Virus record (IMG/VR): IMGVR_UViG_3300045988_161114
Coordinates: 96,001 to 160,000 of that record
Source: a virus
Direction: 5' to 3' (one strand)
Length of the DNA: 64,000 bases
Shown: positions 36,522-55,100 of the stretch, piece after piece
Position numbering within the stretch: the stretch's first letter is position 1
How the letters are laid out: each line of letters begins with the position of its first letter
Position numbers and translations under genes: made by a program
Notes under the pieces: model-generated
Told to the model about the DNA's origin: nothing
The model's input: the letters and a program-made list of their open reading frames with translations, nothing else
Databases searched by the model: none

Positions 36522-36580
36522 GACACTACCGCTCCGTTACAAATTACTGTAGCGGAAAAGTAGTGTCGATTCTTTTGTGA
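36522..36580 (+). repeat. hairpin + T-tract cassette copy 1
   Basis: GACACTAC(CCGCT...AGCGG)...GTAGTGTC, then GATTCTTTTGTGA. Starts 26 nt after the RNAP-A stop. Confidence 0.6.
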
Positions 36581-36631
36581 GAACTTACTAAGGTTTCTAG
36601 TGAGATCATTAGTATGTACACTGTTTATTTA

Positions 36632-36683
36632 AAAGTGCCGGCACTCTTAAGGGTGAGTGTCGACACTTTAATGATTATTTTGT
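36632..36683 (+). repeat. hairpin + T-rich cassette copy 2
   Basis: AAAGTGCCGGCACT / AGTGTCGACACTTT (14 bp, 1 mismatch, 1 G-T). 33 nt upstream of ATG 36702. Confidence 0.6.
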
Positions 36684-36701
36684 TAACCCTTGGAGAGTAT
36701 T

Positions 36702-37040
36702 ATGAACTACAACAAATTATTGAAGAAAGACCTTATCGCGTTACTGGTGAAGAAAGAGTCTGAGGTACAGGCTCTGACTAACAAGGTTGAGGAACTGACC
36801 TTGGCTTTACAACGTAATACCGGTGTTATGGAACAACGACCTTTGATTGAATCCAATGCTCGTGAAGAGGTTTTGACGTTCGTTCAGAAACGGGATTTGT
36901 TGTTCCGTTTCCAAAGGGCATTTGGTACCAAGTTGTATGATACTAGAATCAGTACTAATGGTGCTGAATGGCGTAGGAAAGGGGGTACATATGATACTCC
37001 GTGGAATCCTATTACTGAAGATACTTTTACTGGTAGGTAA
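36702..37040 (+). CDS. hypothetical early protein (112 aa)
   Basis: TTGGAG RBS + 6 nt + ATG. The track start 36690 is the TTG of the RBS. Confidence 0.7.
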   Translation: MNYNKLLKKDLIALLVKKESEVQALTNKVEELTLALQRNTGVMEQRPLIESNAREEVLTFVQKRDLLFRFQRAFGTKLYDTRISTNGAEWRRKGGTYDTPWNPITEDTFTGR

Positions 37041-37050
37041 AGCACTAGAG

Positions 37051-37088
37051 ATCGGCGCATTAATATGTGTGTGTCGATTTCTTTTTGA
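37051..37088 (+). repeat. hairpin + T-tract cassette copy 3
   Basis: ATCGGCGC / GTGTCGAT (8 bp, 2 G-T), then TTCTTTTTGA. Confidence 0.65.
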
Positions 37089-37122
37089 GGTTTTATACCT
37101 TGTGTGAGTGTAAGTAACTTTA

Positions 37123-37168
37123 TCGGCACCTTAAGCTTTACGGCTTTCGGTGTCGACTCTTTTTTGAT
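37123..37168 (+). repeat. hairpin + T-tract cassette copy 4
   Basis: TCGGCACC / GGTGTCGA, 18-nt loop, then CTCTTTTTTGAT. 38 nt upstream of ATG 37194. Confidence 0.65.
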
Positions 37169-37193
37169 ATTAACTTTTTTAATGGAGATTGCT

Positions 37194-37394
37194 ATGTTTG
37201 TTCCTCATGTCAACTTTGCCAACACTGAAGTCTTAACAGCATACTTTGAAGAAAATGATCCCTTTGTAGAGATTAAAGAATACCAAGGGTACGTTAAAGC
37301 AGTTGATACCGAAACCGGTGAACGTGCTTTTTGGGTTAAAGGTCTTAATGGATTCTTAACATTCGATAGCAGTAATGCATCTTATTGCTGCTAA
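37194..37394 (+). CDS. hypothetical early protein (66 aa)
   Basis: ATGGAG RBS-like sequence + ATG 37194. The upstream part of the track ORF covers cassettes. Confidence 0.6.
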   Translation: MFVPHVNFANTEVLTAYFEENDPFVEIKEYQGYVKAVDTETGERAFWVKGLNGFLTFDSSNASYCC

Positions 37395-37400
37395 TATTGG

Positions 37401-37437
37401 AATCGGCATCTATTGTAGGTGTCGATTTCTTTTTGAT
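37401..37437 (+). repeat. hairpin + T-tract cassette copy 5
   Basis: AATCGGCATC / GGTGTCGATT (10 bp, 2 G-T), then TCTTTTTGAT. Confidence 0.65.
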
Positions 37438-37473
37438 TATTTTTTTAACTTTTATGGCTATAGGAGGCCCCAA

Positions 37474-37830
37474 ATGAAATACATCCCTACTAAAAACATG
37501 TTCCAAATTTGGAATAACCCTGAAGAACGCAAAAAATTTGAGGACGCAGCACATGATGAAGCTAAAGAAAACTTCATTGCTGAACTCAAAGAAGAGGGCT
37601 ATAAATCTGTTGAAGAGTACAAAGACTACCTGCGCGGATATAGCAGTGCAGATCTGTTCCATGATGTACTCGAATACCGTGAAGAACGGGACAGAGAGGA
37701 TGATTTATCTAACCATCCAGATATCAGCCCGGAACAAAGTTTCCGCCATATGGTTTCATGTTTTGAGCATATCATTAACATCGATATCCATAATGACATC
37801 ATCGAACAGTTAGACAGATTAGGTAAATAA
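37474..37830 (+). CDS. hypothetical early protein (118 aa)
   Basis: AGGAGG RBS 6 nt upstream of ATG 37474. Confidence 0.7.
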   Translation: MKYIPTKNMFQIWNNPEERKKFEDAAHDEAKENFIAELKEEGYKSVEEYKDYLRGYSSADLFHDVLEYREERDREDDLSNHPDISPEQSFRHMVSCFEHIINIDIHNDIIEQLDRLGK

Positions 37831-37840
37831 CAATCTATAA

Positions 37841-37873
37841 GAGTCGGCACATAAAGTGTCGATTCTTTTTTGA
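37841..37873 (+). repeat. hairpin + T-tract cassette copy 6
   Basis: GAGTCGGCAC ataaa GTGTCGATTC, then TTTTTTGA. Confidence 0.7.
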
Positions 37874-37906
37874 GTAAAACCTTTTATACGGAGAAAGGAA
37901 TCCAAA

Positions 37907-38140
37907 ATGTTTGTTGTAGACAAAAAGGACTTTGATGTCCAACTTAAAAACAAAATTCAGGAGTGTATTAATAATCCTGAATTACAAGATATTATGCATG
38001 CAGATAATGGTAATTCTGTTATCTGCGGCTTTGGATACGTACAAGTCATCAATACAGATGGCGATGTATTGTATCAAGTTAATCATACGGGGATGGATGT
38101 GGTAGCTGATATTCGTAAGATTTGCGGTATCACTTACTAA
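37907..38140 (+). CDS. hypothetical early protein (77 aa)
   Basis: GGAGAAAGGA RBS region upstream of the ATG. Confidence 0.7.
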   Translation: MFVVDKKDFDVQLKNKIQECINNPELQDIMHADNGNSVICGFGYVQVINTDGDVLYQVNHTGMDVVADIRKICGITY

Positions 38141-38146
38141 TACAGA

Positions 38147-38180
38147 AGAGTCGGCGCTTTTAGTGTCGATTCTTTTTTGA
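38147..38180 (+). repeat. hairpin + T-tract cassette copy 7
   Basis: AGAGTCGGCGC tttta GTGTCGATTCT (2 G-T), then TTTTTTGA. Confidence 0.7.
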
Positions 38181-38248
38181 AGAAAGTTGTTTTTCATAGG
38201 ATTAGTGTCGACGGGGTCCCTTTTCTCCGCCTGCTCTTCGTAGTGAAA

Positions 38249-38289
38249 GTCGCCACACCTCCCTAGGGCAGTGTCGACTTCTTTTTGAT
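38249..38289 (+). repeat. hairpin + T-tract cassette copy 8
   Basis: GTCG(CC)ACAC / GTGTCGAC, then TTCTTTTTGAT. An orphan TAGTGTCGAC half-site lies at 38203-38212. Confidence 0.6.
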
Positions 38290-38319
38290 TATTAACCATG
38301 TCTTAGAAAGGACAGCACC

Positions 38320-38697
38320 ATGAAAATCATTTTCTCACCTAAAGAAGTATCCGCCGCAAAAGAATTCAAATCTAAATTCTTTAGTCTGATTGAAAAGACC
38401 GCTGAAAAGGTTTGCATTGTAACCGGTAAAGATCCGAAACTGGCTAAGACTAAAGCCAAAGAATTCTTGAATAAGGATATTGTTACAGTATCAAATGAAG
38501 AATCTGGTGCATCTATTGTTGAAGTAGATGAAAAATGGGTTACTGGTTTCATTGATAAATTTGGTGAAACTGTTTATGCTTGGATTGATGTTGGTTTCAA
38601 TGTCATGGTATCCTGTTTACCATTGGCCAATATCGCATTCTTTAAGCAAAAAGAGCTTGGTGAACACATGAAACAGTTGAACAAAAAAGATTACTAA
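38320..38697 (+). CDS. hypothetical early protein (125 aa)
   Basis: AGAAAGGA RBS upstream of the ATG. Confidence 0.7.
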   Translation: MKIIFSPKEVSAAKEFKSKFFSLIEKTAEKVCIVTGKDPKLAKTKAKEFLNKDIVTVSNEESGASIVEVDEKWVTGFIDKFGETVYAWIDVGFNVMVSCLPLANIAFFKQKELGEHMKQLNKKDY

Positions 38698-38705
38698 TTT
38701 GAATC

Positions 38706-38749
38706 ATCGGCACTAGACAAATTAACGTTTAGTGTCGATTTTTTATTGA
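38706..38749 (+). repeat. hairpin + T-tract cassette copy 9
   Basis: ATCGGCACT / AGTGTCGAT, ~16-nt loop, then TTTTTATTGA. Confidence 0.65.
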
Positions 38750-38775
38750 AAGCCATCTAATAGAAAGGAAATGAT

Positions 38776-39711
38776 ATGGCCGACAAAGCAAAAGCTGCGA
38801 GAAAGCAGTTGCATAATATTGCAAACGGTATTAAGAATGCCGCGAAAGGTTATGCTGCTGCTATTGATCAGTCAGTTAAAAAACTCAATGAAGAAAAGGT
38901 TATCGCCGGCTTTATTGAGTACAAAACAGTAGCACACGAATACATTAAAAATGGTGTACTCGATACGGATCCATACGATGTTATGGATGAAACTAAACCC
39001 GAAACCAAACTTGGCAATGTTGCCGATTCAATTTTCACCAATTACAAGGAAGCCATCATGAAAACCGTAAACGCTAAAAACTTCAAATCTCAACAAGTTC
39101 TGGACGCTGAAATGAAAGAAATCAGCAAACTGGACGAATCCGGTGTACTGTTGCTGCACTCTGCTGTTGTGAAAGCCAACAAGGAATATATGGCCAACCA
39201 AAGCGAAGAAAACAAGGTACGTCTGTATGTTGAAGTTCGCAAATACATCCGTGCTGTTGCTCACTTTGGTACTAATGATATTACCGGTATCACTATTGCT
39301 CAAAGCAATATGGAAGCTGTGAATGAGGTTGCTTCTGATATTTTGTCAGAATTGAAGATGAATGTCAGCACTCATGAAGAAGCTGAAGCTATTGTAGAAT
39401 CCGTTAAAGATTCTATTAAGCAAACTCCTGAAGCCGTTAAGAAAGGCTGGACAGGTTCTATTATGGTCGGCCTCACCAAGGTTGGCGGTCTGTTGTGGGA
39501 CTTTGCCAAAGGTGTTGTATGCTATGTTTATAATGGCGCTAAGAAAGTAATTGGTTCCATTATCAAAGTATCTGCGCTGGCATTGTCTTGTATCATCGAT
39601 CTGCTGGACGCCGCTACTACCAAAGACTTTGGTGCTAGTGGTGCCAAAGGCATCATCCGTAAAGGTATGGTTGCCATGACTAATGTCGAAGAAGAAGCTG
39701 TTGCAGCATGA
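38776..39711 (+). CDS. hypothetical early protein with hydrophobic C-terminus (311 aa)
   Basis: AGAAAGGAAA RBS. GC-richer codon usage. C-terminal IMVGLTKVGGLLWDF...SALALSCIIDLL. Confidence 0.75.
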   Translation: MADKAKAARKQLHNIANGIKNAAKGYAAAIDQSVKKLNEEKVIAGFIEYKTVAHEYIKNGVLDTDPYDVMDETKPETKLGNVADSIFTNYKEAIMKTVNAKNFKSQQVLDAEMKEISKLDESGVLLLHSAVVKANKEYMANQSEENKVRLYVEVRKYIRAVAHFGTNDITGITIAQSNMEAVNEVASDILSELKMNVSTHEEAEAIVESVKDSIKQTPEAVKKGWTGSIMVGLTKVGGLLWDFAKGVVCYVYNGAKKVIGSIIKVSALALSCIIDLLDAATTKDFGASGAKGIIRKGMVAMTNVEEEAVAA

Positions 39712-39980
39712 TATATGCAGACGCTTCTGAAGTTGGCAAAGGTGTATTCTTAATTGGATACATCTCTGCTAACAATAGCAAAAGGGCTTATAAGCGCATT
39801 AAAGCAAAAGACAATAATGTTGCAGAAAGAGCCGCAATTGAATTTGCTTTACAGAATAGCGATGGGGAAGTTGTTGCTAGTGACAGTTTAAACAATGTTA
39901 CTGGTATTAATAACCCACAGGTTGTGTTTGTTCCTCGTAGCAATAACTTGGCAGACCTGTACATCAAAAGCTGTAAATAG
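39708..39980 (+). CDS. minimal RNase H-like (DEDD) protein (90 aa)
   Basis: IYADAS...NNVAERAAIEFAL...VASDSLNNV...PRSNNLADLY reproduces the D-E-D-D motif order of RNase H. ATGA overlap with the upstream gene. Confidence 0.5.
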   Translation: MIYADASEVGKGVFLIGYISANNSKRAYKRIKAKDNNVAERAAIEFALQNSDGEVVASDSLNNVTGINNPQVVFVPRSNNLADLYIKSCK

Positions 39981-39985
39981 AAATA

Positions 39986-40027
39986 AAGATCGACACTCCA
40001 TCATAGTGAGTGTCGATTTTTTATTGA
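39986..40027 (+). repeat. hairpin + T-tract cassette copy 10
   Basis: AAGATCGACACTC / GAGTGTCGATTT (5' arm fully complementary, no wobble at the core), then TTTTATTGA. Confidence 0.7.
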
Positions 40028-40093
40028 GGATAATGTTGTCCTCATTAACGGGTATTCGCCCACTTTTATTCTATTTTAAAAAAGGATCTTAAA

Positions 40094-41533
40094 ATGAACC
40101 AACAAGCAAACTTTGAAATCAACCCAGCTCGCATCATCTCTGTTGTACGCAACAACCCTGAAGACTTCCATGAAGTATCCGGTACTGTATACATGCCACG
40201 TCCTGAAAATCGTCGTGTGATTTACAGCATCAACCGCCGCGATACTGATAACGGTCCGGTATTCAGTGTTTACCGTACTCAGAATGTAATGGTGCCTGCG
40301 CCTTACAGCAATACCCGTAATGCCCGTGCTACCGGTTGGGTTATGGCAAATGCCGATGACCATTGGTCTGTAGCACAAAAAGGTGCTGTTGACTTTGTTA
40401 ACACTCCTGTTGGTGACCATAACCACTGGGCAATGGAAACAGCTCTGAAAAGCGATGTTTTCAATGCAATGTCAGTACAAGGTCAATGGACTTATACTTT
40501 TGTATGTCCGTCCGATGCAGTAAAACAGTCAGAGTATGACGTTATCAACCGTAATGCTTTGGCCATTTTGGGTTTGCAGTCTCAAAAAGAAAACCTGTCT
40601 ACAATGAACAGCCAATATGTTCACAATACCGGTGAAATCCGTACTATTGAAAAGGCAATGAATGTTAATGCCATCAATCAGCGTATGGAAGAACTGTACA
40701 AAGAATATTTGGTTCAAGTTGCTAAACTGGTCAAAGAAGAAAAACTGTTTAAAGGTGTAGCGATTTATGCTAACCGCGACACCCTTTTACCGATCGCATT
40801 GCCAGAACTTGGTGCTGGTTACGGTCGTGTTGGTAGCACAGCAAAAGACTTGTGGGAAAACACTTTGTTCCCTGCAAGCCGCGTAATTGCTGGTTTATTT
40901 ATGGTAGGTAAAGCAACAGTCAATATGGCTGATGTTGATCCTTTGCATTCTGACTTCACCTGCGGTATTCAAGTTACCCAAAACAGCGAGACACAATATA
41001 CTCGCCGCATTGTTGAAGTAACTAATCCTCAAGGTAATAAGATTGCAATCCGTACTACTTTGTATGATAACAATCGTGGCAATAGCAATAGCCGTCCTGA
41101 AGCCTTTGAACGTGGTATCACTAGCAATCCTGCTATTATTTACCAAGCCGGTAACCGTGTAACTATGGAAAGCCGTATTCAAGGTCAAGGACAGCCCTGG
41201 GTTACTGTACCGAATATCGTGATTTCCGAATACATCTTCGACCGCGCTGGTAGTGGTGTTGCCGCTCCTGTCGTATCAGAAGACTTCGATATGTTTGCTG
41301 CTCCTGTAGCGACTGTTGAAGAAGTTGAAGAAATCGATATCAACAAGATCGAAACAGTAAGCTCTGAAGCTCCGAAAGAGCAAACAGGTGTACAAGCAGC
41401 ACGTGCACGTCGTTTGGCTCGTGGTACTAAACAGGCTGCTGAAGAAAAAGAATCAACCCAAACAGTTGATGAATTGCTCTCCGGCGCTGATGGTACTGTA
41501 GATCAAGGTGAACAAGAAGAACCTGCTGCTTAA
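40094..41533 (+). CDS. abundant-type early protein with acidic C-terminal tail (479 aa); function unknown
   Basis: AAAAGGA RBS. GC-richer codon usage. The C-terminus is acidic (EEVEEIDINK...GEQEEPAA). Followed by a canonical terminator. Confidence 0.75.
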   Translation: MNQQANFEINPARIISVVRNNPEDFHEVSGTVYMPRPENRRVIYSINRRDTDNGPVFSVYRTQNVMVPAPYSNTRNARATGWVMANADDHWSVAQKGAVDFVNTPVGDHNHWAMETALKSDVFNAMSVQGQWTYTFVCPSDAVKQSEYDVINRNALAILGLQSQKENLSTMNSQYVHNTGEIRTIEKAMNVNAINQRMEELYKEYLVQVAKLVKEEKLFKGVAIYANRDTLLPIALPELGAGYGRVGSTAKDLWENTLFPASRVIAGLFMVGKATVNMADVDPLHSDFTCGIQVTQNSETQYTRRIVEVTNPQGNKIAIRTTLYDNNRGNSNSRPEAFERGITSNPAIIYQAGNRVTMESRIQGQGQPWVTVPNIVISEYIFDRAGSGVAAPVVSEDFDMFAAPVATVEEVEEIDINKIETVSSEAPKEQTGVQAARARRLARGTKQAAEEKESTQTVDELLSGADGTVDQGEQEEPAA

Positions 41534-41548
41534 TGTAGTAAAAGAAAA

Positions 41549-41577
41549 GGTCCCACTTTTAGGAGTGGGATCTTTTT
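41549..41577 (+). terminator. intrinsic terminator
   Basis: GGTCCCACT tttagg AGTGGGATC + TTTTT. Confidence 0.8.
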
Positions 41578-41607
41578 ATGATTAAATTCTTGTTGGAGGT
41601 AATAAAA

Positions 41608-41949
41608 ATGGATATTAAAGATATCAATGTTGGCCAAATCGTTGTAGATAAATTCGGGAATGAATACGAAGTTATCGACACTGATATATCCCAGTGTATT
41701 GCAAAATTGAAATGCACCAAGTTTGTAACAGAAAGTCGTACAGATCCTGTTTTTAAATTTGACAGGCTCGGTAAAGTACTTTGGGTTGGTTCAAATGGTG
41801 TATATCCAGGATATGATGTTACCTCAGATATTCTTATTCAAACGTTAAAATTAAAGGTCGGCAATAAAAATTCGGATAACGAACTTGAAGAGCTTAAAAA
41901 GCGAGTAGAGCGTTTAGAGAAATTAGTTGGCGTAACTAATTTGAGTTAA
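41608..41949 (+). CDS. hypothetical protein (113 aa)
   Basis: TTGGAGG RBS + ATG 41608. C-terminal coiled-coil-like ELEELKKRVERLEKLV. Confidence 0.7.
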   Translation: MDIKDINVGQIVVDKFGNEYEVIDTDISQCIAKLKCTKFVTESRTDPVFKFDRLGKVLWVGSNGVYPGYDVTSDILIQTLKLKVGNKNSDNELEELKKRVERLEKLVGVTNLS

Positions 41950-42085
41950 CAATCATAAAAGAGTATGATTTTATATCATTTCTTATGGCTATTATTGTTA
42001 TACTATCAACAATAGGAATATTGTATATATTAGAGGCGGTAATAACTTTATTATTTAAGTTTCTTTTTTGTGTAGAGGTGTTGAT

Positions 42086-42346
42086 ATGTTTGTATTTGGA
42101 AGTGTTTGGGATTACTTGCTATATAATTCAATTGTAAATAATCCTATCGGATTGTTATACATAATTGGGTTGGTAGTATATACAGCGCTTATAGTAGTTA
42201 ATCTATCCGCCGCCGTTGATAAGATTAAGTGGTTTAAGAAACGACAAAATAGTCAAATCTTTATCACAATACTAATACTAATCTCTATTGTATTAGGACA
42301 TATAGCAACTGTATTAACAGGTAAGCTAATTTCTGTCCTGATATAG
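42086..42346 (+). CDS. two-TM membrane protein (86 aa)
   Basis: GAGGTG RBS + ATG 42086. Two hydrophobic segments. Confidence 0.55.
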   Translation: MFVFGSVWDYLLYNSIVNNPIGLLYIIGLVVYTALIVVNLSAAVDKIKWFKKRQNSQIFITILILISIVLGHIATVLTGKLISVLI

Positions 42347-42349
42347 AAA

Positions 42350-43620
42350 GCAATACAATACGGGGCGAGCGTAAGCGAGCCACTTTACCAATAAAGATTA
42401 CAACAATACAGTGTCTATTATTTTTTGAGCATAAAAGATACTGGCTGCGATTTTATATATCGTTGTATACATATATATAAGTGAATTAAAAGCAATAGAA
42501 GAATAAATAGTATGTTTATATATAAGGTACAATACAGGTATATATAACAGTAATACAATAGATAGATAAATAGCACATGTCCGGCGCGGCATGTGTTGTA
42601 ATAAGTACAGTTATGAATAGTACAGATACGACAAAATTACCGAATACTATAGATAAGTATACGGCGGGCGCTCCTATTTAAAGGATTCGTTAAAAAATTA
42701 AGTTGTTCACTAAGTGTATATACCAATAAATACAATAAGAAATAGTATATTACTAGGGATTATATCAAGCATACTGTATATGCTAATACCCACCGTGACC
42801 ACACGATGTCGCTGGGGACGTAACCTTACAGCTTCACAGCCCAATTCAGGAACCAAGCATTGCTTATATAGTACACTTATTAGATATAAAACGCCGCTAA
42901 TAAGTATAATACCTCTGTAGTGTATAAATAAATATACATTGACAAAGAACCCTTTAAAAAGAATACAACAAGCACTGATGCGATACAGGAAATATAGAAT
43001 AAGAAAAGGGATAAATTCTAATATATGTATGCCTTTCCATGCACTTAAGGAGTTTATAGTCTCTCCAGTAGGACTACTCTCTAACAATATATATAAGTAT
43101 AGTATATATAGTATAAGAATGCAATCCCTTAATTTTAAAATTGTACTGATATCAGTTGTAGATGTAATTATTTTGACATCTAAAGCCACAGAGTGGCTTG
43201 TATTGTATCATCTTTTTGATCGCTGTACCAGGTACATGTATCTTAAACTTCTTTAATTGGTATTTAGTATATAAGGAATACACTAAGTGTATTCAGTATT
43301 AAAAGTATATTTAGAATTTTAAAATATAGATTACATTTCATAGTATTAAATAATTATATAAATTGCTGTAGTGTATTCTTATATATGTATATATGTGTAT
43401 ATGGTATTGTTTTATTGTATTAGGGCTATTTGTTAATAGCCTTTATTGTATTTTTATTTATTTATTCTTATATAGGTGTTTTTTATTATGATTAGTGTAG
43501 ATTTAATTGTTGCTTTATTGTTTTATGTTTGTTCTATTTTTATTGTATATTTTATTTTATGTACAATTGATCAATAGAGAAATAAGTGGCGCGGGTATAT
43601 GTATATATCACTGTAGTGCT
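42350..43620. other. ORF-poor, cassette-free AT-rich block with TATA/GTATA-type low complexity and isolated GC islands; origin or genome-end candidate
   Basis: Only compositionally odd (Y/I/L-rich) ORFs overlapping on both strands. Words ATAAGTATA, TATATATAAG and AATACAATA recur. GC islands: GCGAGCgtaaGCGAGC (42366), CACATGtccGGCGCGGCATGTG (42575), GGCGGGCGC (42663), GGCGCGGG (43589). Confidence 0.35.
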
Positions 43621-43626
43621 TTATTT

Positions 43627-43658
43627 AAATATCGACTTTAGTGTCGATATTTTATTGA
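43627..43658 (+). repeat. hairpin + T-tract cassette copy 11
   Basis: AAATATCGAC tttagt GTCGATATTT, then TATTGA. 33 nt upstream of ATG 43685. Confidence 0.7.
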
Positions 43659-43684
43659 TTTATTTTTATTAGTTTGGAGTAATT

Positions 43685-43807
43685 ATGCCACTATTTATTG
43701 AGTTAGTTCAAATTCTTTTAATTGTTATTGTTCTTTTTTGCATATTTTGTATGATTATCTTGACTTGTATTATTATTAAAAGTTTATATGATATTTATTT
43801 TAAATAA
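43685..43807 (+). CDS. hydrophobic peptide (40 aa)
   Basis: TTTGGAG RBS + 6 nt + ATG, directly after cassette 11. MPLFIELVQILLIVIVLFCIFCMIILTCIIIKSLYDIYFK. Confidence 0.55.
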   Translation: MPLFIELVQILLIVIVLFCIFCMIILTCIIIKSLYDIYFK

Positions 43808-43834
43808 CAAGAATATATTTGAATGGCAATATAT

Positions 43835-43867
43835 AAGGTCGGCACAATAGTGTCGACTTTTTATTGA
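43835..43867 (+). repeat. hairpin + T-tract cassette copy 12
   Basis: AAGGTCGGCAC aata GTGTCGACTTT, then TTATTGA. Confidence 0.7.
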
Positions 43868-43892
43868 TTAAATTTTATCCTGCGGGTCTATT

Positions 43893-43967
43893 ATGATTAA
43901 GTTCATAGAAAATATGACATTGAATCAATACATGAAATTCTATGTCTTCCTTATTTTATTAATCTAA
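43893..43967 (+). CDS. possible 24-aa peptide
   Basis: ATG lies 33 nt after cassette 12, the usual spacing, but there is no clear RBS. MIKFIENMTLNQYMKFYVFLILLI. Confidence 0.25.
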   Translation: MIKFIENMTLNQYMKFYVFLILLI

Positions 43968-43980
43968 GAAAGGGTTAATT

Positions 43981-44094
43981 ATGGGACTTGAAACAGCTAT
44001 TACAGTATACATGTCTGTACTGTTTGTCATCATGTTTTTAGGATGGTTAGCATTTACTGTCCTGGAAGGTTTTTTATTACAAAAGAAAGGATAA
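43981..44094 (+). CDS. hydrophobic peptide (37 aa)
   Basis: GAAAGGG RBS. MGLETAITVYMSVLFVIMFLGWLAFTVLEGFLLQKKG. Confidence 0.5.
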   Translation: MGLETAITVYMSVLFVIMFLGWLAFTVLEGFLLQKKG

Positions 44095-44097
44095 GTC

Positions 44098-44460: not shown

Positions 44461-44523
44461 GGTTTCATCATGACATTTTATCTTTTGTATTTGTTTTTAA
44501 TTTCCATCTTTTAAGGTGAAAGT

Positions 44524-44766: not shown

Positions 44767-44815
44767 TAATTTCTCATTAATGATATATCATTTATATTTT
44801 GATCTTAAAGTTTTT

Positions 44816-44847: not shown

Positions 44848-44879
44848 TTATTTTTATTTTAATAGAAAAGGATTTTGTT

Positions 44880-45805: not shown

Positions 45806-45840
45806 AAAAGTTGACACAATAGTGTCAACTTTTTTTTTGG
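45806..45840 (+). repeat. hairpin + T-tract cassette copy 14 (compensatory variant)
   Basis: AAAAGTTGACAC aata GTGTCAACTTTT + TTTTTGG. TCGA is changed to TCAA with a matching TTGA in the 5' arm. Confidence 0.75.
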
Positions 45841-46366: not shown

Positions 46367-46367
46367 A

Positions 46368-46793: not shown

Positions 46794-46800
46794 TTTAAAA

Positions 46801-46833
46801 ATGTTCGGCACATTAGTGTCGAATATTTTTTGA
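46801..46833 (+). repeat. hairpin + T-tract cassette copy 15
   Basis: ATGTTCGGCAC atta GTGTCGAATAT, then TTTTTGA. Confidence 0.7.
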
Positions 46834-46860
46834 TTAAAATCATTTTATTTGGAGTATGGT

Positions 46861-47172: not shown

Positions 47173-47184
47173 CGGAGACTTTAA

Positions 47185-47520: not shown

Positions 47521-47530
47521 AAGTTAAAAA

Positions 47531-47565
47531 TAATCGGCGCGATATTAGTGTCGATTATTTTTTGA
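47531..47565 (+). repeat. hairpin + T-tract cassette copy 16
   Basis: TAATCGGCGC gatatta GTGTCGATTA (2 G-T), then TTTTTTGA. Confidence 0.7.
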
Positions 47566-49218: not shown

Positions 49219-49528
49219 TGCATTAAATTGCATAAATTGACGTAAAAAGCAATCAAAATTTGTATGCATCTATTTATATCGGGTTTACATTCGGTATAAG
49301 TGGTGCATACAAAAACAAAACTTTGTAGAATATTGAAATATAAAGAAATATTCTTATGTAAAAGTTTATTAAGAAGTGTATGCAATTTAAATAGCTCAAT
49401 AAGCATGTAGTCATGCATCGGGTATATCAAACGACTTTTTTAACTGGGCCAAAGCATATTTTGTGTACATTTCTTAATGAGCTTTTGCTCATTTATTGCC
49501 GTAAAGGTGATATTTATTAAGATCGTTT

Positions 49529-49560
49529 GGACGCGGGTTCGACTCCCGCCAACTCCACCA
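49529..49560 (+). ncRNA. ssrA: tmRNA acceptor-piece 3' end (T-arm + acceptor 3' strand + ACCA)
   Basis: GGAC GCGGG TTCGACT CCCGC CAACTCC ACCA, nearly identical to the E. coli SsrA 3' end as I recall it. Confidence 0.85.
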
Positions 49561-49677
49561 AAAGACATTTCAAAGATGTTGATACTCTGAAAAGAGTTAG
49601 CGATTCCATATAGCCTATTTTTAACCCTATTACATTATTGCGATTGAGTTAAAATGTCTTATGAGATGTCTTCTGAT

Positions 49678-49760
49678 GGGGTTGTAATGGAATTCGACAG
49701 GCGGTGAATAGGGATATTGCTCGGCACGAGTTGCTTCGTAAAAGCAAAATTAAAATAAAT
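49678..49760 (+). ncRNA. ssrA: tmRNA coding-piece 5' region (acceptor 5' strand, D-analog, PK1-like)
   Basis: GGGGTTG pairs 7/7 with CAACTCC, including G3-U. TAATGGAATTCGAC. UUGCUU...GUAAAAGCAA pseudoknot-like pairing. Confidence 0.75.
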
Positions 49761-49799
49761 GCAAACGATGATGTTTACATGGTACGCGCCGCTGCCTAA
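49761..49799 (+). other. tmRNA tag reading frame ANDDVYMVRAAA + UAA
   Basis: AAAAUAAAU|GCA AAC GAU GAU GUU UAC AUG GUA CGC GCC GCU GCC UAA. Same context as the E. coli resume codon (..AUAGUC|GCA AAC GAC..). Confidence 0.6.
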
Positions 49800-50032
49800 T
49801 TTAGGTAGTTGAGCATAAATGTACAGGGTTTGGACAGTACCTGGTAACAGAAACTGTCCGAGAATTCTAACACTGCGGCTAGTGCACAGTGAGTTTCGTA
49901 ATCGTCTACGATTGGGTAGAGCTGGAATCGTAACCAGCAATTATAAAAGAGTAAATATGTTTGGGCATACCTAGTAACCAACTAGTGAAATTTAAACAAG
50001 CATATATTTTGTGGAAATAACTTAACCATATA

Positions 50033-50781: not shown

Positions 50782-50825
50782 GCGTCGGCGCACTTTATGT
50801 GACGCCGGCGCATTCTTTATTTAAT
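50782..50825 (+). repeat. hairpin + T-rich cassette copy 18 (GC-rich variant)
   Basis: GCGTCGGCGCAC tttat GTG(A)CGCCGGCGC (12 bp, 1 bulge), then ATTCTTTATTTAATT. Confidence 0.55.
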
Positions 50826-51590: not shown

Positions 51591-51597
51591 TTTTAGT

Positions 51598-51632
51598 AGC
51601 CTAGCACTTATGTGTTAGGCTTTCTTGTTTTT
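51598..51632 (+). terminator. intrinsic terminator
   Basis: AGCCTAGCAC ttat GTGTTAGGCT (1 G-T) + TTCTTGTTTTT. Confidence 0.75.
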
Positions 51633-51661
51633 ACAACAATGTTCTCAGAAAGGACACAAAG

Positions 51662-54600
51662 ATGTACATTCGCTTAAAAGACATTCCAGTAATTGATGCT
51701 GATGCTACAGTTGCGGAGGTTTATGAAATTTATTCTAAACAGTTGCCACAGGATCCAAGACTTAATTGGAAACTGTTGCAAGATCGTATTGCAATGGAAA
51801 TTGTAAATGAGATTTCTGAACCGACTACAATTGAGATTCCTAAATCTTTTTATGATCTCAAATTGAATTGGCCTGAATTTTTGTTTGCAACCAAACATAT
51901 TGACAGCAGTTCTGACATTGAATTGATGAGTCATCATGAACTTATGTTTATGATGTTGTATGAACGCCTTGAATCTTTGTTCAAGTATGATCAACTCTTT
52001 ACTGAATTGATTCGCAAAGACATCAATTATGTCAAGAACCATGTATTGTATGTAACAAGTAATGCATACAATGCTGCTTTGAAAGAATCTTCTGAACTTG
52101 TTATTATTTCTCCTTATAATGAGTACAGTAAAGTTTTGACATATTTGCATCAAGATAAAGTTATGGGCGACGCATTGCCCATGTTGTTTAATCCATCCGA
52201 TCGTGCTATTAAGACTTCTGCATTATATTTTAATGTATTGCCCGGAAGTGAATCAATGCTTGCTGAATCTAATAAAATTATCATTTCTAAAAACGGTAAA
52301 GAGTTTCAGGCTCCTGGATTCCAAGTATTTAAAGATGAAAACGGTGGCTTTGTAGGTTATTCAAGTTTGTTCAAAGTTGGACAGTCTTTGCCTGCCCGTT
52401 TCAAGACTCATCTTAATGGTAATGCATTTGGTGTAAGCAATCCTTCTAAGTTCATCTTTTTACAGGATGCAATTGAAAAGGATGGTGAATTAATCACTAA
52501 GGATAATACCTTAGTTGATGCAGTAATGGTTTATAACGATATTGAATTGGAATCGTATCGTTTAGTAGGCGGCGAAATTGAAGTATCGCCTAAAGTAGGC
52601 AAAGAAATTGTGTTCACTCCTCGTCATATTGAAACTGAATTTGATGAGATTGATGTAAAAGTTGGACAGACTATTTACAGCAAAGGTGGGTACATTAAAA
52701 TTGGTTCACGTGGCGGTGAAGCAATTTATATCGAAATGGTAGACCATATTCAGGTTACTTCTATTGAAGAATCGGGATATAATGGGTCCGCCCGCATTGA
52801 TTATATTGCCTACTATAAAGCTGGTAATGCCCGTATTACAAGCCAAACTGGCTTGAAAGGTGTTACTAAAACTATGCGCAGTTGTGGCAAAATCAAGATT
52901 CATGAAGATGGCAAAGAAGATAAAATCATCGACGTGGATATTGTAGCTGGTATTAATAGCCTTAAAGGTAAAATGAATACTATTCGTCTTGCTCAAGCAG
53001 CTTTTGCATTTAAATATGGCTATTATACCAATGATAAAGATTACCTCGACAGTCTTAATGAAGAGGAAATCAATGCCGCTGTTGCGTCATTGCCTACTGC
53101 AACTTATGAAAAACGTATTAAACGTGTTGATGGTTATGATGATGAAATTATTGTAATTGAAAACGTTAAATACGGCCTGGTTCAGTATTCTTACACTGAA
53201 TTGGGTAGCCATTTTGCTAAGATTAAGAATCAAGGCATGTCATTTAATTGTTTGAAATATATTTGTCAAACAACAGATTCATCTCTTGGACAATATATTT
53301 TAGATAATTGTATTGATAAATCTGATAAGCAAATTGTTGAAGAATTGGCAAAAATCTTGTCAGATGAAGGTCATGTATTTGAATACGCTGATAATTATCC
53401 GTCATATACATTGATTGAATTGAAGTCAATGTTTAATGAACAGGACTTAATCTTGAGTCGTTCTGCTATTATTCCTACTAGCAGTAAATTGTTGGATCCT
53501 GAATTCAATAAAGGTTTCTATATCGACTTAAGTAAGGTTCGTTCTGGTACAAGTATTCGTGTACCATCTGCAGAGATTTTAAATAAATTCTGCGGTAAGC
53601 AAAATGATGGTCAATATGTATATCCAACTATGCTTATTGAATTGTCTAAAATCATTCGTGCAGCAATTGCTGGCCCTAGCCAGTATTTTACTATTGCGCC
53701 GCATCGTAATGAACGTAATCATAAGCGTCCTTCCGCATGGAATGGCTATTTGAATGCAATTAAATCAATGCTGTATCGTACTGAATTAGGTGGTCAAACT
53801 TATGTTAAATCACTTATTCAGCCAAGTCTCAAAGGTGTCAACCTTAAACAGGTTCATGATAAATATGTTCCTGAAGGCAAAGTCGTAATTCTTGATCGTA
53901 ATATTCTTGAGAGTATTCGTGAGTATATTTATGGCAAGCCTAATAATAAGACAACTGAAGAGGCAATGCTTGACCAGTTCCGTCCATTAAATGCATTTAC
54001 TTTGCGTAATCCGTTTTTATGGCGTTCACAGATGATTATTTCCCAACTTTGGGGAATTGATGAATTCAATGATTATCTTCAGGAGAATTATGGAATGACT
54101 GTCAATGATTATCTGGATGTACAGGGAAATCTGCATTGCGCTTTGATTTCTACTGAAATTGTAAGACGTAGCCATAGCGACAATGATGGCGACTTATTGC
54201 AAATTAGTTCAATACCAGGAATTGAGCAACAAGAAATGATGGCTCAATTCAAATTGGAATACTTTACTGAAGATCAAAAACAGTGGGATGAAGACTTCTT
54301 GTTGTCTGAGTATTCATCTATTGAAGATGTTGATTGGAGTAAAAAGTACGAATTGTATTATGTTCCAATTTATCCTAAGCATCCTGGTGATAATGCTTAT
54401 ATGGAATTTCTATGTTCATCAGCTATGGCTAAGAATGCAGTTGGTCCTGGTACAAATGATGCATGGGTATTTTACATGTTAGTTCAGCTGTATTATGGAC
54501 TGGCGCGTGATAATGATCCTAAATCGTATGTACCTTGGGAACGTAAACGTAAAGTACAACTTCGTATTAAAGAAGAAGACTTGTTTACTTATGACCATAT

Positions 54601-55048
54601 TTATACAATGGTTCTTGAAAATCGTGTAATTAATGCGATTAAACATGTGTCAGGTGGAGCTAGCTCTCATGCTGTCTTCTACCTCAAAAACATGACAAAA
54701 GACGACAAGAGTGTTAAAAAGGTAATTAAAAGTATCGAGAATGACTTAGGTTATTCAAGAGAAGTTGCCGTTTCTATTTGTCGTATTGTAAATTGGGCAG
54801 TTAATACCAATGCACTTGAAATGTGTAATAAGTTTTTACGCATGCACAATAAAGGTGCCCTAGTTGATCTAGGTGATGCGGATATTCAGATGTGGTTTAA
54901 ACACATTGTTGATTATACGTTCTTTGGCAGTATGCTTGCACCGATTTTTACCATTTATGGTCAAAGTCAAGGATTAATTCCTTTAGGCGAAAATGCAGAA
55001 AATAATGTGGCCGAAGTTATGGACACTTTTGACGCAATTGGTTTTTAA
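51662..55048 (+). CDS. single-chain two-barrel (beta-like + beta'-like) RNA polymerase candidate B (1128 aa)
   Basis: Beta-like AGNARITSQTGLKGVTKTM and IIDVDIVAGINSLKGKMNTIRLAQA. Beta'-like LRNPFLWRSQMIISQLW...HCALISTEIVRRSHSDNDGDLLQI, with the Asp triad at nt 54179-54193. Confidence 0.7.
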   Translation: MYIRLKDIPVIDADATVAEVYEIYSKQLPQDPRLNWKLLQDRIAMEIVNEISEPTTIEIPKSFYDLKLNWPEFLFATKHIDSSSDIELMSHHELMFMMLYERLESLFKYDQLFTELIRKDINYVKNHVLYVTSNAYNAALKESSELVIISPYNEYSKVLTYLHQDKVMGDALPMLFNPSDRAIKTSALYFNVLPGSESMLAESNKIIISKNGKEFQAPGFQVFKDENGGFVGYSSLFKVGQSLPARFKTHLNGNAFGVSNPSKFIFLQDAIEKDGELITKDNTLVDAVMVYNDIELESYRLVGGEIEVSPKVGKEIVFTPRHIETEFDEIDVKVGQTIYSKGGYIKIGSRGGEAIYIEMVDHIQVTSIEESGYNGSARIDYIAYYKAGNARITSQTGLKGVTKTMRSCGKIKIHEDGKEDKIIDVDIVAGINSLKGKMNTIRLAQAAFAFKYGYYTNDKDYLDSLNEEEINAAVASLPTATYEKRIKRVDGYDDEIIVIENVKYGLVQYSYTELGSHFAKIKNQGMSFNCLKYICQTTDSSLGQYILDNCIDKSDKQIVEELAKILSDEGHVFEYADNYPSYTLIELKSMFNEQDLILSRSAIIPTSSKLLDPEFNKGFYIDLSKVRSGTSIRVPSAEILNKFCGKQNDGQYVYPTMLIELSKIIRAAIAGPSQYFTIAPHRNERNHKRPSAWNGYLNAIKSMLYRTELGGQTYVKSLIQPSLKGVNLKQVHDKYVPEGKVVILDRNILESIREYIYGKPNNKTTEEAMLDQFRPLNAFTLRNPFLWRSQMIISQLWGIDEFNDYLQENYGMTVNDYLDVQGNLHCALISTEIVRRSHSDNDGDLLQISSIPGIEQQEMMAQFKLEYFTEDQKQWDEDFLLSEYSSIEDVDWSKKYELYYVPIYPKHPGDNAYMEFLCSSAMAKNAVGPGTNDAWVFYMLVQLYYGLARDNDPKSYVPWERKRKVQLRIKEEDLFTYDHIYTMVLENRVINAIKHVSGGASSHAVFYLKNMTKDDKSVKKVIKSIENDLGYSREVAVSICRIVNWAVNTNALEMCNKFLRMHNKGALVDLGDADIQMWFKHIVDYTFFGSMLAPIFTIYGQSQGLIPLGENAENNVAEVMDTFDAIGF

Positions 55049-55056
55049 AGCATAAG

Positions 55057-55100
55057 AAAGAGAGGCACGAAAGTGTCTCTCTTTTTATTTTTTTATTTTT
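55057..55100 (+). repeat. hairpin + T-tract cassette copy 19 / terminator after RNAP-B
   Basis: AAAGAGAGGCAC gaaa GTGTCTCTCTTT (GGCAC/GTGTC core with the same G-T), then TTATTTTTTTATTTTT. 30 nt upstream of ATG 55114. Confidence 0.75.

Follow-up and report, generated by a model that had tools for sequence, protein, structure and literature searches.

A recurrent early-region cassette of an uncultured phage as a putative fusion of an intrinsic terminator and a phage RNA polymerase promoter

Introduction

Between the small early genes of an uncultured phage of ~180 kb, which encodes two unusual single-chain RNA polymerases, lies a repeated signal of 40-60 bases. Most likely, an RNA hairpin in this signal terminates one transcript, and a conserved 18-base motif overlapping the hairpin is where the next one begins. 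We somewhat favor reading each cassette as the fusion of two elements, an intrinsic terminator and a promoter that a phage two-barrel RNA polymerase would recognize, a reading drawn from sequence comparison and from analogy with the PeSLs of T4-type phages. It builds on what was directly observed: how conservation is distributed, the pairing on the sense strand, hairpins and motifs that are placed separately in relatives, junctions that are chimeric, and the fold of the polymerase. The repeats also double as breakpoints in gene gain and loss.

The window, the whole stretch of 64,000 nucleotides that was analyzed, holds both polymerase genes:

33146..36496, + strand: RNAP-A, 1116 aa, invariant NQDDFDGDR motif; outside the cassette zone
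51662..55048, + strand: RNAP-B, 1128 aa, single-chain two-barrel RNA polymerase, motif SHSDNDGD

Their labeling as RNA polymerase genes in a first-pass annotation of this DNA is well founded. The predicted RNAP-B model (pLDDT 85.5) matches large subunits of multisubunit RNA polymerases, with Foldseek returning the Pol III second-largest subunit (E 8e-6) and, more weakly (E 2e-3 to 0.2), bacterial beta', ASFV RPB1 and the phiKZ nvRNAP. The RNAP-A family is a distant paralogue of RNAP-B with the invariant DFDGD aligned (hhalign probability 95%, E 2.7e-8), and RNAP-A is a candidate virion polymerase.

The cassette family and its extent

Allowing up to three mismatches, the 19-nt consensus AGTGTCGAYTTYTTTTTGA has 17 matches, 16 of them on the + strand at 36562-47565, where shuffled sequence predicts 0.09; the 7-mer GTGTCGA occurs 18 times on the + strand, and 16 of these fall within the 11-kb cassette stretch. 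The recurring family described in the first-pass annotation is therefore real and far rarer in shuffles, while its count of at least 19 copies shrinks to about 16. These are 14 full copies (hairpin, GTGTCGA, T-rich spacer and TGA) together with one lacking the T tract (36657) and one with a variant core and no TGA (45822); two further copies are partial (38205, core only; 42411, GTGTCTA without a hairpin). All lie on the + strand, and bit scores are from the covariance model:

36522..36580, +: cassette 1, first of a tandem pair; nested hairpin, outer stem GACACTAC/GTAGTGTC, dG -23.7; core GTGTCGA at 36563, 67 nt past the RNAP-A stop; spacer TTCTTTTG, then TGA; compensatory TAC/GTA to TCT/AGA in the L010 orthologue
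36639..36674, +: cassette 2, start-proximal; hairpin CGGCACUC/GAGUGUCG, core at 36657; non-T-rich spacer CACTTTAA, TGA 29 nt ahead of the ATG at 36703; 33.7 bits, outside the training set
37049..37088, +: cassette 3, stop-proximal; TCGGCGC/GTGTCGA, core at 37071
37123..37167, +: cassette 4, start-proximal; TCGGCAC/GTGTCGA, core at 37150; structured loop, 20 nt between arms
37400..37436, +: cassette 5; core at 37419, 13-bp stem
37841..37873, +: cassette 6; core at 37856, 58.9 bits
38148..38180, +: cassette 7, stop-proximal; core at 38163, 57.8 bits
38205..38211, +: partial copy; lone GTGTCGA between cassettes 7 and 9, no T tract, no TGA
38247..38288, +: cassette 9, start-proximal; core at 38271, interrupted stem, 26.6 bits
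38706..38749, +: cassette 10; core at 38732, 13-bp stem
39987..40027, +: cassette 11; TCGACAC/GTGTCGA (5' arm TCGGCAC in orthologues), core at 40010, next ATG 78 nt on
42411..42428, +: hairpin-less variant; GTGTCTA-TTATTTTT-TGA heading a 1.2-kb AT-rich non-coding stretch; kept in L010, two flanking positions differing
43629..43658, +: cassette 13; ATCGAC/GTCGAT stem, core at 43641
43836..43867, +: cassette 14; core at 43850, 59.2 bits
44818..44847, +: cassette 15; core at 44830
45806..45839, +: cassette 16, variant; perfect 12-bp stem AAAAGTTGACAC/GTGTCAACTTTT, then T9; no TGA at +15
46802..46833, +: cassette 17; core at 46816, 63.6 bits
47531..47565, +: cassette 18, last family member; TCGGCGC/GTGTCGA (5' arm TCGACAC in orthologues), core at 47548, 66.2 bits

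A covariance model, the check that the annotation had proposed, gave strong matches only on the + strand between 36.6 and 47.6 kb and no credible cassette in the minus-strand structural operon, where none had been noticed earlier, or past 55.5 kb. The region is also enriched in terminator-like hairpins at large (30, vs 10.5 +/- 3 in shuffles). Three hairpins had been or might be taken for cassettes but are generic terminators:

41545..41588, +: generic intrinsic terminator after a 479-aa gene; GGUCCCACU/AGUGGGAUC plus U run, dG -18.6
51598..51631, +: hairpin plus T run just upstream of the RNAP-B gene; CCTAGCAC/GTGTTAGG
55055..55095, +: generic intrinsic terminator 7 nt past the RNAP-B stop; 14-bp stem plus T run, dG -20.3

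The first (41551) shares only the downstream TGATTAAAT with the family (21.3 bits, E 0.06); the second, which got no score from the covariance model, keeps its hairpin and has lost the motif at a position that full cassettes occupy in clade II relatives; the third, previously counted as the last copy, was rejected as a sequence member (20.1 bits, E 0.11). Because all three lack the core motif, the family stops at 47.6 kb and not at 55.1 kb. An element near 48.8 kb was likewise rejected.

Nor does a cassette stand at almost every early gene, as had been thought: the transcription units that cassettes bound hold 1-4 genes each, and tandem cassettes with no gene between them occur. Intergenic DNA consists of a cassette and a ribosome-binding site, the hairpin and U tract lying 21-35 nt past stop codons. 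In start-proximal copies the next start codon comes 35-50 nt after the 3' arm, and for 40010 it comes 78 nt after it; the earlier figures were 30-47 nt and, for one copy, 74 nt. For the upstream members of tandem pairs the distance is 109-151 nt. Sigma-70 promoters at the cassettes are unsupported, such sites not being enriched (81 vs 85.7 expected), and no other promoter-like motif is visible in the 11-kb region.

RNA pairing and asymmetric constraint

The invariant part of the cassette is the 18-nt block GTGTCGA-N8(T-rich)-TGA. Over 20 orthologous pairs its core diverges by 0.7%, its spacer by 2.5% and its TGA by 3.3%, as against 15% for the 5' arm together with the loop and 21% for the sequence downstream. 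Stems are 7-14 bp long with loops of 3-36 nt, some structures being nested, and have dG values of -7 to -24 kcal/mol, with 5-7 U directly after them in most copies. In the 16 short-loop copies, 100% of the cells of the 10-bp stem pair, a figure that falls to 28-50% if the partner is shifted by 1-3 columns. The core stem varies only on its 5' side, by G<->A exchanges opposite a fixed T (flips between G·U and A-U), and this 3' T is never C, though C would strengthen the stem. Selection hence acts on the sequence of the 3' arm itself, but on the 5' arm only through its pairing with the 3' arm; the earlier proposal that both arms are under sequence selection does not hold for the 5' arm. The wobble pairs are C·A mismatches on the template strand and are tolerated only on the sense strand, so the hairpin is an RNA hairpin; the annotation had read the same G-U pairs as evidence of a strand- or RNA-level function.

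One true double compensation, cited in the annotation, proves genuine: at the variant cassette 16 (45806, core position 45822) the window has TTGACAC/GTGTCAA where the L003 orthologue (2996) has TCGACA/GTGTCGA plus TGA. Compensation maintains pairing even at the motif-decayed sites 45822 and 51598, indicating selection for the hairpin on the sense strand independently of the motif; cassette 16 itself looks like a terminator preserved by double compensatory change while its motif decayed. Stem stability, U tract, sense-strand G·U pairs and compensation together support the intrinsic terminator, one of the roles first suggested, as half of the element.

A sense-strand hairpin with G·U pairs and conserved sequence directly 3' of the stem might equally belong to a processing or stabilizer element, at which a host or phage endonuclease would cut a long polycistronic RNA in the single-stranded U-rich/TGA segment and the 3' hairpins would protect the resulting mRNAs; the T7 early RNase III sites likewise lie between cistrons. 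We hold this to be improbable, since RNase III-type sites, also raised in the annotation, are unsupported because stems of 7-14 bp are too short; besides, hairpin-less copies in relatives have no protective structure, an upstream promoter and 11 kb of read-through across efficient-looking U-tract hairpins would be needed, and no dedicated nuclease was identified.

Motif without hairpin in relatives

Nearly every copy in the window has a hairpin, so the separation of the two modules comes from relatives. In clade II relatives, where identity is 45% for RNAP-B and about 28% for RNAP-A, GTGTCGG-N8-YGR occurs at fixed spacing on the coding strand, and in the 140-kb and 181-kb relatives all strict matches lie within the same early region. 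After removal of orthologous duplicates, 15 of 19 hairpin-bearing clade II copies lie 15-45 nt after a stop codon, compared with none of the 15 hairpin-less ones (Fisher p = 2e-6), 11 of which lie 15-55 nt ahead of a start codon, distances somewhat blurred by automatic gene calls, a few of which put starts inside the motif. Spacers are T-richer where there is a hairpin (5.7 vs 4.6 T, p = 0.003). The motif, on this comparison, outlives the hairpin in clade II, and several hairpin-bearing copies distant from start codons nonetheless retain YGR. In clade II a full cassette precedes the RNAP-B gene itself, as one would expect if a polymerase delivered with the virion transcribed this gene early; in clade I the gene lacks the motif, so the scheme is not the same in both clades.

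Hairpin-dependent promoters in the N4 sense, another early suggestion, would make the hairpin part of the promoter and not a terminator, being recognized as extruded DNA. That would suit a phage that encodes its own RNA polymerases and a clade I element with a nearly constant hairpin and one sequence-conserved arm, but loop lengths of 3-36 nt and nested folds do not allow a cruciform to extrude, each G·T pair of the + strand corresponds to a C·A mismatch on the template, the motif stands in relatives with no hairpin at all, and the phage polymerases are two-barrel enzymes, not the T7-like N4 type; we judge such promoters very improbable.

More substantial, though still unlikely in our estimate, is the view that the cassettes are terminators or attenuators only, their 3' arm, U tract and TGA forming a polymerase-specific termination or pause signal of the phiKZ type and promoters lying elsewhere, with later read-through by antitermination possibly timing delayed-early expression. 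The clade II form CGG-N8-YG also fits the G(-10)Y(-1)G(+1) elemental pause consensus of multisubunit RNA polymerases, which would suit a pause or termination role, and the hairpin-plus-U-tract anatomy past stop codons and the compensation at motif-decayed sites point the same way. Moreover, phiKZ and 201phi2-1 have a sequence-conserved terminator motif (PMC10914365, PMC11512511) and P23-45 a 26-nt motif at seven termination sites (PMC10770324), so that, conserved terminators being known in phages with their own RNA polymerases, conservation alone is no proof of a promoter. Against this stand the hairpin-less copies of relatives, which have non-U-rich spacers and lie 24-52 nt before starts, never at the terminator position; the 5' arm, unconserved here whereas both arms are conserved in the phiKZ motif; the want of any other promoter-like motif or sigma-70 enrichment; and the narrow motif-to-ATG distance, which termination leaves unexplained. 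Furthermore, if no promoters intervened, a series of about 15 hairpins of terminator grade, 14 of which have a U tract, would silence distal genes in the 11-kb region unless antitermination were invoked ad hoc. What best explains the conservation of the 3' arm, spacer and TGA is that they act as a promoter.

A proposed mechanism and its known counterparts

In the terminator-promoter fusion that we prefer, each cassette would carry two signals with partly common sequence. The first would be an 18-nt DNA motif, GTGTCG(A/G), an 8-nt pyrimidine/T-rich spacer and (T/C)G(A/G), acting as promoter for one of the phage's single-chain two-barrel RNA polymerases, with initiation at or beside the conserved G, per the Y(-1)R(+1) rule, and a resulting 5' UTR of 25-40 nt that contains the ribosome-binding site. 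The second would be an intrinsic terminator acting on the transcript from upstream, in which the freely evolving 5' arm would pair in RNA with the promoter's GTGTCGA and the T-rich spacer would furnish the U tract. Because the two overlap, one transcript would end within a few nucleotides of the beginning of the next, and the early region would be divided into insulated units of 1-4 genes. Promoter activity, start site, the identity of the reading polymerase and termination itself are what we infer here.

An 18-nt block identical at every junction would also offer recombination a stretch of homology through which gene modules can be gained or lost. L010 lacks the window genes 37196-37394 and 38320-38697, with both junctions inside the conserved block, and has a chimeric cassette at each indel, with cassettes 4 (left) and 5 (right) as parents at the first and 9 (left) and 10 (right) at the second; L011 has an extra gene between the counterparts of cassettes 3 and 4. 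Chimeric cassettes at indel junctions, and tandem cassettes with no gene between, would also be produced by a selfish or recently amplified repeat, in which similarity reflects copying (gene conversion or a mobile mini-element) and not transcriptional function. We find that scarcely credible, given that conservation of the block among orthologues exceeds that of the 5' arm, loop and flanks 6-30-fold, that the block is still present in clades with polymerase identities of 28-45%, and that it keeps strict orientation and position relative to genes.

The proposed fusion has counterparts in known systems. Phage P23-45 has two two-barrel RNA polymerases and short conserved promoter motifs (PMC10770324). 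Experiments have validated the PeSLs of T4-type phages as cassettes that are promoter and terminator at once, with G-T pairs in stem-loops that overlap the promoter (PMC2839356, PMC4122927). The chimeric cassettes at gene indels in L010, where shuffling is PeSL-like, lend support to the analogy.

A repeat family confined to the early block

The DNA between the two RNA polymerase genes of this phage carries a real, well-delimited regulatory repeat, a cassette made up of a hairpin, the core GTGTCGA, a T-rich 8-nt spacer and TGA. Cassettes are named here by the start of their core, and the elements under discussion are the following:

33146-36496, + strand: gene for RNAP-A
36563-47548, + strand: the cassettes, among which 36657, 38205, 42411 and 45822 are partial or variant copies
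41551, 51598 and 55055: hairpin and T-run elements that the first-pass annotation had counted in
51662-55048, + strand: gene for RNAP-B

GTGTCGA occurs 18 times on the + strand of the window, 16 of these at 36563-47548, and a 19-nt consensus (up to three mismatches) finds 16 + strand matches in the same stretch against 0.09 expected. The minimum-free-energy fold pairs the 3′ arm with an upstream arm in all copies but 42411, with 36657 and 38205 partial or atypical. When the 16 short-loop copies are aligned, 100% of the cells of the 10-bp stem are paired, as against 28-50% in slid controls, and there is covariation at three outer stem pairs. A covariance model built from this alignment, as the first-pass annotation had proposed, scores 26-66 bits at 14 sites, all on the + strand and confined to 36.6-47.6 kb; 41551 and 55055 reach no more than about 21 bits with it (E at least 0.06), and it has no credible match in the late, structural operon or past 55.5 kb. 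The annotation had described at least 19 conserved cassettes over 36522-55100, punctuating almost every early gene. The family it recognized is real, with about 16 members and an end at 47.6 kb; 41551, 51598 and 55055 are ordinary terminators without the core, and what the cassettes delimit are units of one to four tightly packed genes.

All 16 copies fall within 11 kb of short ORFs, the two largest of which have no match in Pfam or PHROGs. Strict matches in a 140-kb and a 181-kb relative lie only within the corresponding early block, the behaviour expected of a single temporal class of promoters, and a pattern scan of 185,579 bacterial genomes yielded only single chance-level matches, with no pointer to the host. 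About half of the matching IMG/VR rows were single matches in unrelated-looking contigs and were left out of the analysis.

The phage, its relatives and its two polymerases

Capsid, portal and terminase are encoded on the minus strand (0.2-26 kb of the window). At the DNA level the region matches none of 50,697 phage records (megablast); the capsid protein shares 30-35% identity with those of Acinetobacter phage ME3, a Moorella phage and Bacillus phage 0305phi8-36, the last of which has a YonO-like single-chain polymerase (PMC7824862). Close relatives were found on metagenomic contigs of 140-186 kb.

RNAP-B carries the motif SHSDNDGD and gives a confident AF2 model (pLDDT 85.5), for which the best PDB structure matches come without exception from the large subunits of multisubunit RNA polymerases: the second-largest subunit of Pol III at the top (E 8e-6) and, more weakly (E 2e-3 to 0.2), bacterial beta′, ASFV RPB1 and phiKZ nvRNAP. 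RNAP-A has the motif NQDDFDGDR, invariant in its family, and the two families align by hhalign with 95% probability (E 2.7e-8, 344 columns) and their metal-binding motifs in register. Since the AF2 model of RNAP-A (pLDDT 39.7) is unusable, the identity of this protein as a polymerase rests on that alignment and on the invariant DFDGD. With RNAP-B placed by its fold and RNAP-A by this route, the label of two RNAP genes in the first-pass annotation stands, and so does the assignment of both as single-chain two-barrel polymerases that are distant paralogues, like the pair in Thermus phage P23-45 (PMC10770324). Neither polymerase, nor any of the large early proteins, matches a family in Pfam or PHROGs, and PDB sequence searches, including one with a profile of the RNAP-A family, gave no match.

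From clade to clade, identity falls to 25-29% for RNAP-A and is 45-47% for RNAP-B (proteins P0002-P0008 and P0071-P0077). The two polymerases thus differ in evolutionary rate; the motif changes by one base between clades (GTGTCGA versus GTGTCGG). In ME3 (L031 8052-12787), the RNAP-B homologue is found in separate ORFs, ME3_309 and ME3_307, and since RefSeq annotates an ORF of the inserted segment as an endonuclease, the polymerase gene may harbour an intron or homing element.

Selection on sequence and on pairing

The information content of the aligned cassettes lies in GTGTCGA, the T-rich spacer and TGA, with nearly none upstream of the core. Variation in the stem is limited to the 5′ arm, where G and A replace one another facing a fixed T (GU in nine copies and AU in seven at one pair, AU in ten and GU in four at another), and orthologous cassettes show repeated flips between TCGGCAC and TCGACAC in this arm with the 3′ arm unchanged. 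Over 20 orthologous pairs, divergence is 0.7% in the core, 2.5% in the spacer and 3.3% in TGA, as against 15% in the 30 nt upstream and 21% downstream; the T's of the 3′ arm never turn to C, though G-C pairs would give more stability. Selection thus acts on the sequence of the 3′ arm, spacer and TGA, but on the 5′ arm only as the complement of the 3′ arm, and the tolerance of G·U implies that the helix forms on the sense strand, hence in RNA.

Two sites bear on the hairpin itself. The variant copy 45822, which has also lost its TGA, pairs a GTGTCAA core with a TTGACAC 5′ arm, and its orthologue in the relative L003 has GTGTCGA/TCGACA, which makes the change a genuine double compensation. Clade II relatives (below) have a full cassette ahead of the RNAP-B gene, where the window retains a 9-10-bp hairpin (CCTAGCAC/GTGTTAGG) from which the motif is gone. 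Judged from such comparisons, the hairpin is selected in its own right, beyond the motif.

The stems (predicted dG -7 to -24 kcal/mol) are sense-strand stem-loops followed directly on the 3′ side by a U tract, as in intrinsic terminators; 5-7 U follow, with 5-7 T among the 9 nt 3′ of the stem in every copy but 36657. Terminator-like sites are enriched three-fold in the region (30 versus 10.5 expected). The role of intrinsic terminator, one of those raised in the first-pass annotation, is thereby supported as one half of the element. RNase III processing, another, is not: sites of the T7 early type are double-stranded RNA of roughly two helical turns, usually interrupted by an internal loop, and stems of 7-14 bp are too short for that.

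The motif without its hairpin

The two halves of the cassette can be told apart in clade II, the relatives (L004, L006, L007, L012, L029 and L030) in which RNAP-B shares 45% and RNAP-A about 28% identity with its counterpart in the window. Their motif, GTGTCGG-N8-YGR, lies on the coding strand of the corresponding early region; in the first four clade II loci examined, TGA or TGG stands exactly at +15 in 20 of 27 + strand GTGTCGG copies. About half of the clade II copies have no 5′ arm. For placement, orthologous duplicates were collapsed to 34 clusters and hairpins were scored by minimum-free-energy fold. Among the 19 clusters with a hairpin, 15 lie 15-45 nt past a stop codon and eight lie 15-55 nt ahead of a start, with a mean of 5.7 T in the spacer; the corresponding figures for the 15 without a hairpin are none, 11 and 4.6. 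The two groups differ in stop-proximal placement (Fisher p = 2e-6) and in spacer T count (p = 0.003), which indicates that hairpin and U tract travel together and track gene ends and that the bare motif tracks starts. Start-proximal copies have their TGA or TGG 24-52 nt ahead of ATG, 24 nt being the commonest distance from TGA/TGG to the start codon.

Tandem pairs in the window (36563/36657, 37071/37150 and 38163/38271) divide in a similar manner, one copy of each adjoining a stop and the other having its TGA 29-32 nt ahead of ATG. The motif is thus short, of fixed spacing, kept between two clades, and oriented with and near downstream genes, as a promoter for a phage polymerase would be. Among more distant relatives, L008 (RNAP-B 38% identical), L009 (27%) and the cultured phage ME3 have no GTGTCG motif, and a k-mer search for a replacement in these three gave peaks only for ribosome-binding sites and an 11-nt tandem repeat. 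The latter is an iteron-like array of about eight copies (CTTTAGGAATA) at L009 2027-2125, in a non-coding gap of the early region.

Termination, initiation or both

Sigma-70-like sites show no enrichment (81 found, 85.7 expected). A reading of the terminal TTGA as a sigma-70 -35 box was rejected on this ground and because it would put the -10 at the start codon or past it, with none conserved downstream of TTGA in the cassettes; an extended -10 (TGnTTAAAT) fits only a few copies, and the A at -11 is missing. Two individual sigma-70 sites deserve mention:

27214-27242, + strand: TTGACT, 17 nt, TATAAT, in the gap from which the structural operon and the + strand genes diverge
45801-45828, minus strand: TTGACA, 16 nt, TATAAT, a perfect 12/12 consensus yielded by the variant cassette GTGTCAA/TTGACAC, antisense to gene 45333-45801

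The first, the single strong + strand site in an intergenic gap, lies outside the cassette block and may be an entry point for the host polymerase; the gene downstream of it encodes a 275-aa protein found in all relatives and without a family match. The second is the sole 12/12 site in the window.

With no sigma-70 signal in the block, and intergenic DNA there made up of just a cassette and a ribosome-binding site, we lean, on sequence grounds, towards a dual function in which an intrinsic terminator and a phage-polymerase promoter share sequence. The 18-nt block would be the promoter, with transcription starting near its conserved G, which fits the Y(-1)R(+1) rule for transcription starts, and the 5′ arm would turn the upstream half of this promoter and the T-rich spacer into an intrinsic terminator of the preceding transcript. 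Were transcription not restarted at each of them, some 15 successive terminators would silence the distal genes, which argues for the promoter half. In clade II the RNAP-B gene stands behind a cassette, so that RNAP-B would be an early product; RNAP-A, whose gene is outside the block, would then be the candidate for an injected enzyme.

The main rival, serious but in our view less likely, is that the cassettes are terminators only, their conserved sequence being specific to the polymerase that they stop. Such a role could draw on the likeness of the clade II CGG-N8-YG to the elemental pause consensus of multisubunit RNA polymerases. Conserved terminators are documented in phiKZ and 201phi2-1 (PMC10914365, PMC11512511), as is a 26-nt motif common to seven termination sites of P23-45 (PMC10770324). 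It fits poorly, however, with start-adjacent copies that have no hairpin and are not U-rich, with an unconserved 5′ arm, with the restriction of copies to one block and with the lack of any other visible promoter in the region.

Other features of the genome

Several features around the cassettes merit note:

24776-26164, minus strand: last gene of the minus-strand operon, with homologues that have Hint/intein-splicing domains (precomputed Pfam for relatives; L010 2479-3867, L029 2220-3548)
42430-43620: AT-rich stretch with no convincing ORF and with degenerate direct and inverted repeats
49435-49890, + strand: permuted (two-piece) tmRNA with tag peptide ANDDVYMVRAAA (ARAGORN)
60578-62053, + strand: YadA-like trimeric autotransporter adhesin with head, stalk and membrane-anchor domains

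The tmRNA (Rfam RF04321, 115.8 bits; RF01849, 104.8 bits) lies in a stretch of about 1.7 kb (49.2-50.9 kb) without convincing ORFs, at the end of which is a GC-rich hairpin (about 50783-50815). Two clade II loci, L004 and L007, also have an adhesin, and the neighbour of 24776-26164 has a TnsA-like endonuclease N-terminal domain (precomputed Pfam for relatives). The AT-rich stretch has counterparts in clade II:

L006: 300-2450
L007: 1240-2720
L029: 18900-20350
L012: 19030-20880

These stretches (1.2-1.9 kb, 24-32% GC) are headed by a copy of the motif in every relative, the copy in the window being the hairpin-less GTGTCTA at 42411, and may correspond to a replication origin or to a non-coding RNA made early.

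How the cassettes compare with known systems

The closest analogue of the cassettes, as judged from their organization, is the promoter-early stem-loop (PeSL) of the T4-type phages RB49, phi1, PST and nt-1 (PMC2839356, PMC4122927). There too, the small orphan genes of a plastic early region are separated, and transcriptionally insulated, by conserved composite promoter/terminator cassettes that take up the intergenic gaps, the stem-loop may overlap the promoter and has G-T pairs, and gene insertions and deletions between close relatives have their junctions inside cassettes. In the relative L010, window genes 37196-37394 and 38320-38697 are absent and each site is occupied by a single chimeric cassette that joins the left half of the upstream window cassette to the right half of the downstream one (37150/37419 and 38271/38732); in the relative L011, the orthologues of 37071 and 37150 are separated by an additional gene. 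The PeSL promoter, however, is a canonical sigma-70 -35/-10 pair read by the host polymerase, whereas the cassettes have, in place of such a pair, the 18-nt block GTGTCGR-N8-YGR, whose presumed reader is a two-barrel RNA polymerase of the phage; their overlap is fixed, the upstream half of the motif always being the 3′ arm, and they share no sequence homology with PeSLs. Because the sigma-70 promoter that defines PeSLs is absent, the cassette is an analogue and not a member of that class.

Thermus phage P23-45 likewise has two distant paralogous two-barrel RNA polymerases, short conserved motifs that mark early transcription units, and a class of conserved-sequence terminators near the early genome end (PMC10770324). 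In contrast, its virion polymerase is a fusion with the tape-measure protein, its AT-rich promoter motif is not described as part of a hairpin, its promoter and terminator motifs are separate (PMC10770324), and there is no detectable sequence similarity between its polymerases and those described here. The jumbo phages phiKZ and 201phi2-1, which also have their own RNA polymerases, contain dozens of terminators with a common motif, a hairpin followed by a T-rich tail, in a similar range of stem stabilities (PMC10914365, PMC11512511). In phiKZ, however, both arms are conserved (CCYCCCC...GGGRRGG) and terminators occur genome-wide on both strands, whereas here only the 3′ arm is fixed and the 5′ arm varies, all copies share a strand and sit within an 11-kb part of the early region, and hairpin-free versions of the motif are found beside start codons; the cassettes therefore do not match the phiKZ type.

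Hairpin promoters like those of N4 had been suggested in the first-pass annotation. The hairpins recognized by the N4 virion RNAP, three only, have a stem of 5-7 bp and a 3-nt loop and act on the template strand. The likeness is in small conserved-sequence hairpins ahead of early genes of a phage that supplies its own RNA polymerase (PMC4496689), but the N4 enzyme is a T7-like protein of 3,500 aa, and the suggestion fails on loop size (3-36 nt here), on strand, the G·T pairs of the + strand being C·A mismatches on the template so that the wobble pairs fit the sense strand only, and on the hairpin-less copies with which relatives make do.

A more distant parallel is found in the gene-end/gene-start signals used by the virus-encoded polymerases of non-segmented negative-strand RNA viruses and of vaccinia early genes. 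There, as in the cassettes, a U-tract stop is followed directly by a conserved start at each gene junction, an analogy only, given their other polymerases and templates. By this analogy, the polymerase could stop at the hairpin and U tract and re-initiate a few nucleotides downstream without leaving the DNA, which we regard as a long shot; if true, it would amount to stop-start transcription in a DNA phage by a new family of sigma-less single-chain two-barrel RNA polymerases, and would provide the first defined promoter consensus for that family and a compact orthogonal expression part.

Set against these systems, a composite terminator/promoter cassette that also works as a recombination linker belongs to a known kind. 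What is new, as far as sequence can tell, is its putative non-sigma-70 motif, its pairing with two uncharacterized two-barrel polymerases, and the apparent identity of the promoter half with the 3′ arm of the terminator. Hardly any promoters are known for single-chain two-barrel RNA polymerases of the YonO-like and crAss-like kinds: that of YonO is undefined (PMC5467207), and no motif was found for the early genes of crAss-like phi14:2 (bioRxiv 10.1101/2020.03.07.982082). An 18-nt candidate promoter in two clades, with two candidate polymerases, makes promoter recognition by such minimal enzymes testable with recombinant protein and synthetic DNA, and the motif can already serve annotation as a marker of transcription-unit boundaries in a widespread group of uncultured phages of about 180 kb. 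The fusion of promoter and terminator, together with cassette-mediated gene shuffling, would have originated here independently of the T4-type PeSLs and with a non-sigma-70 signal, a sign that the plastic early regions of large phages may follow a common design.
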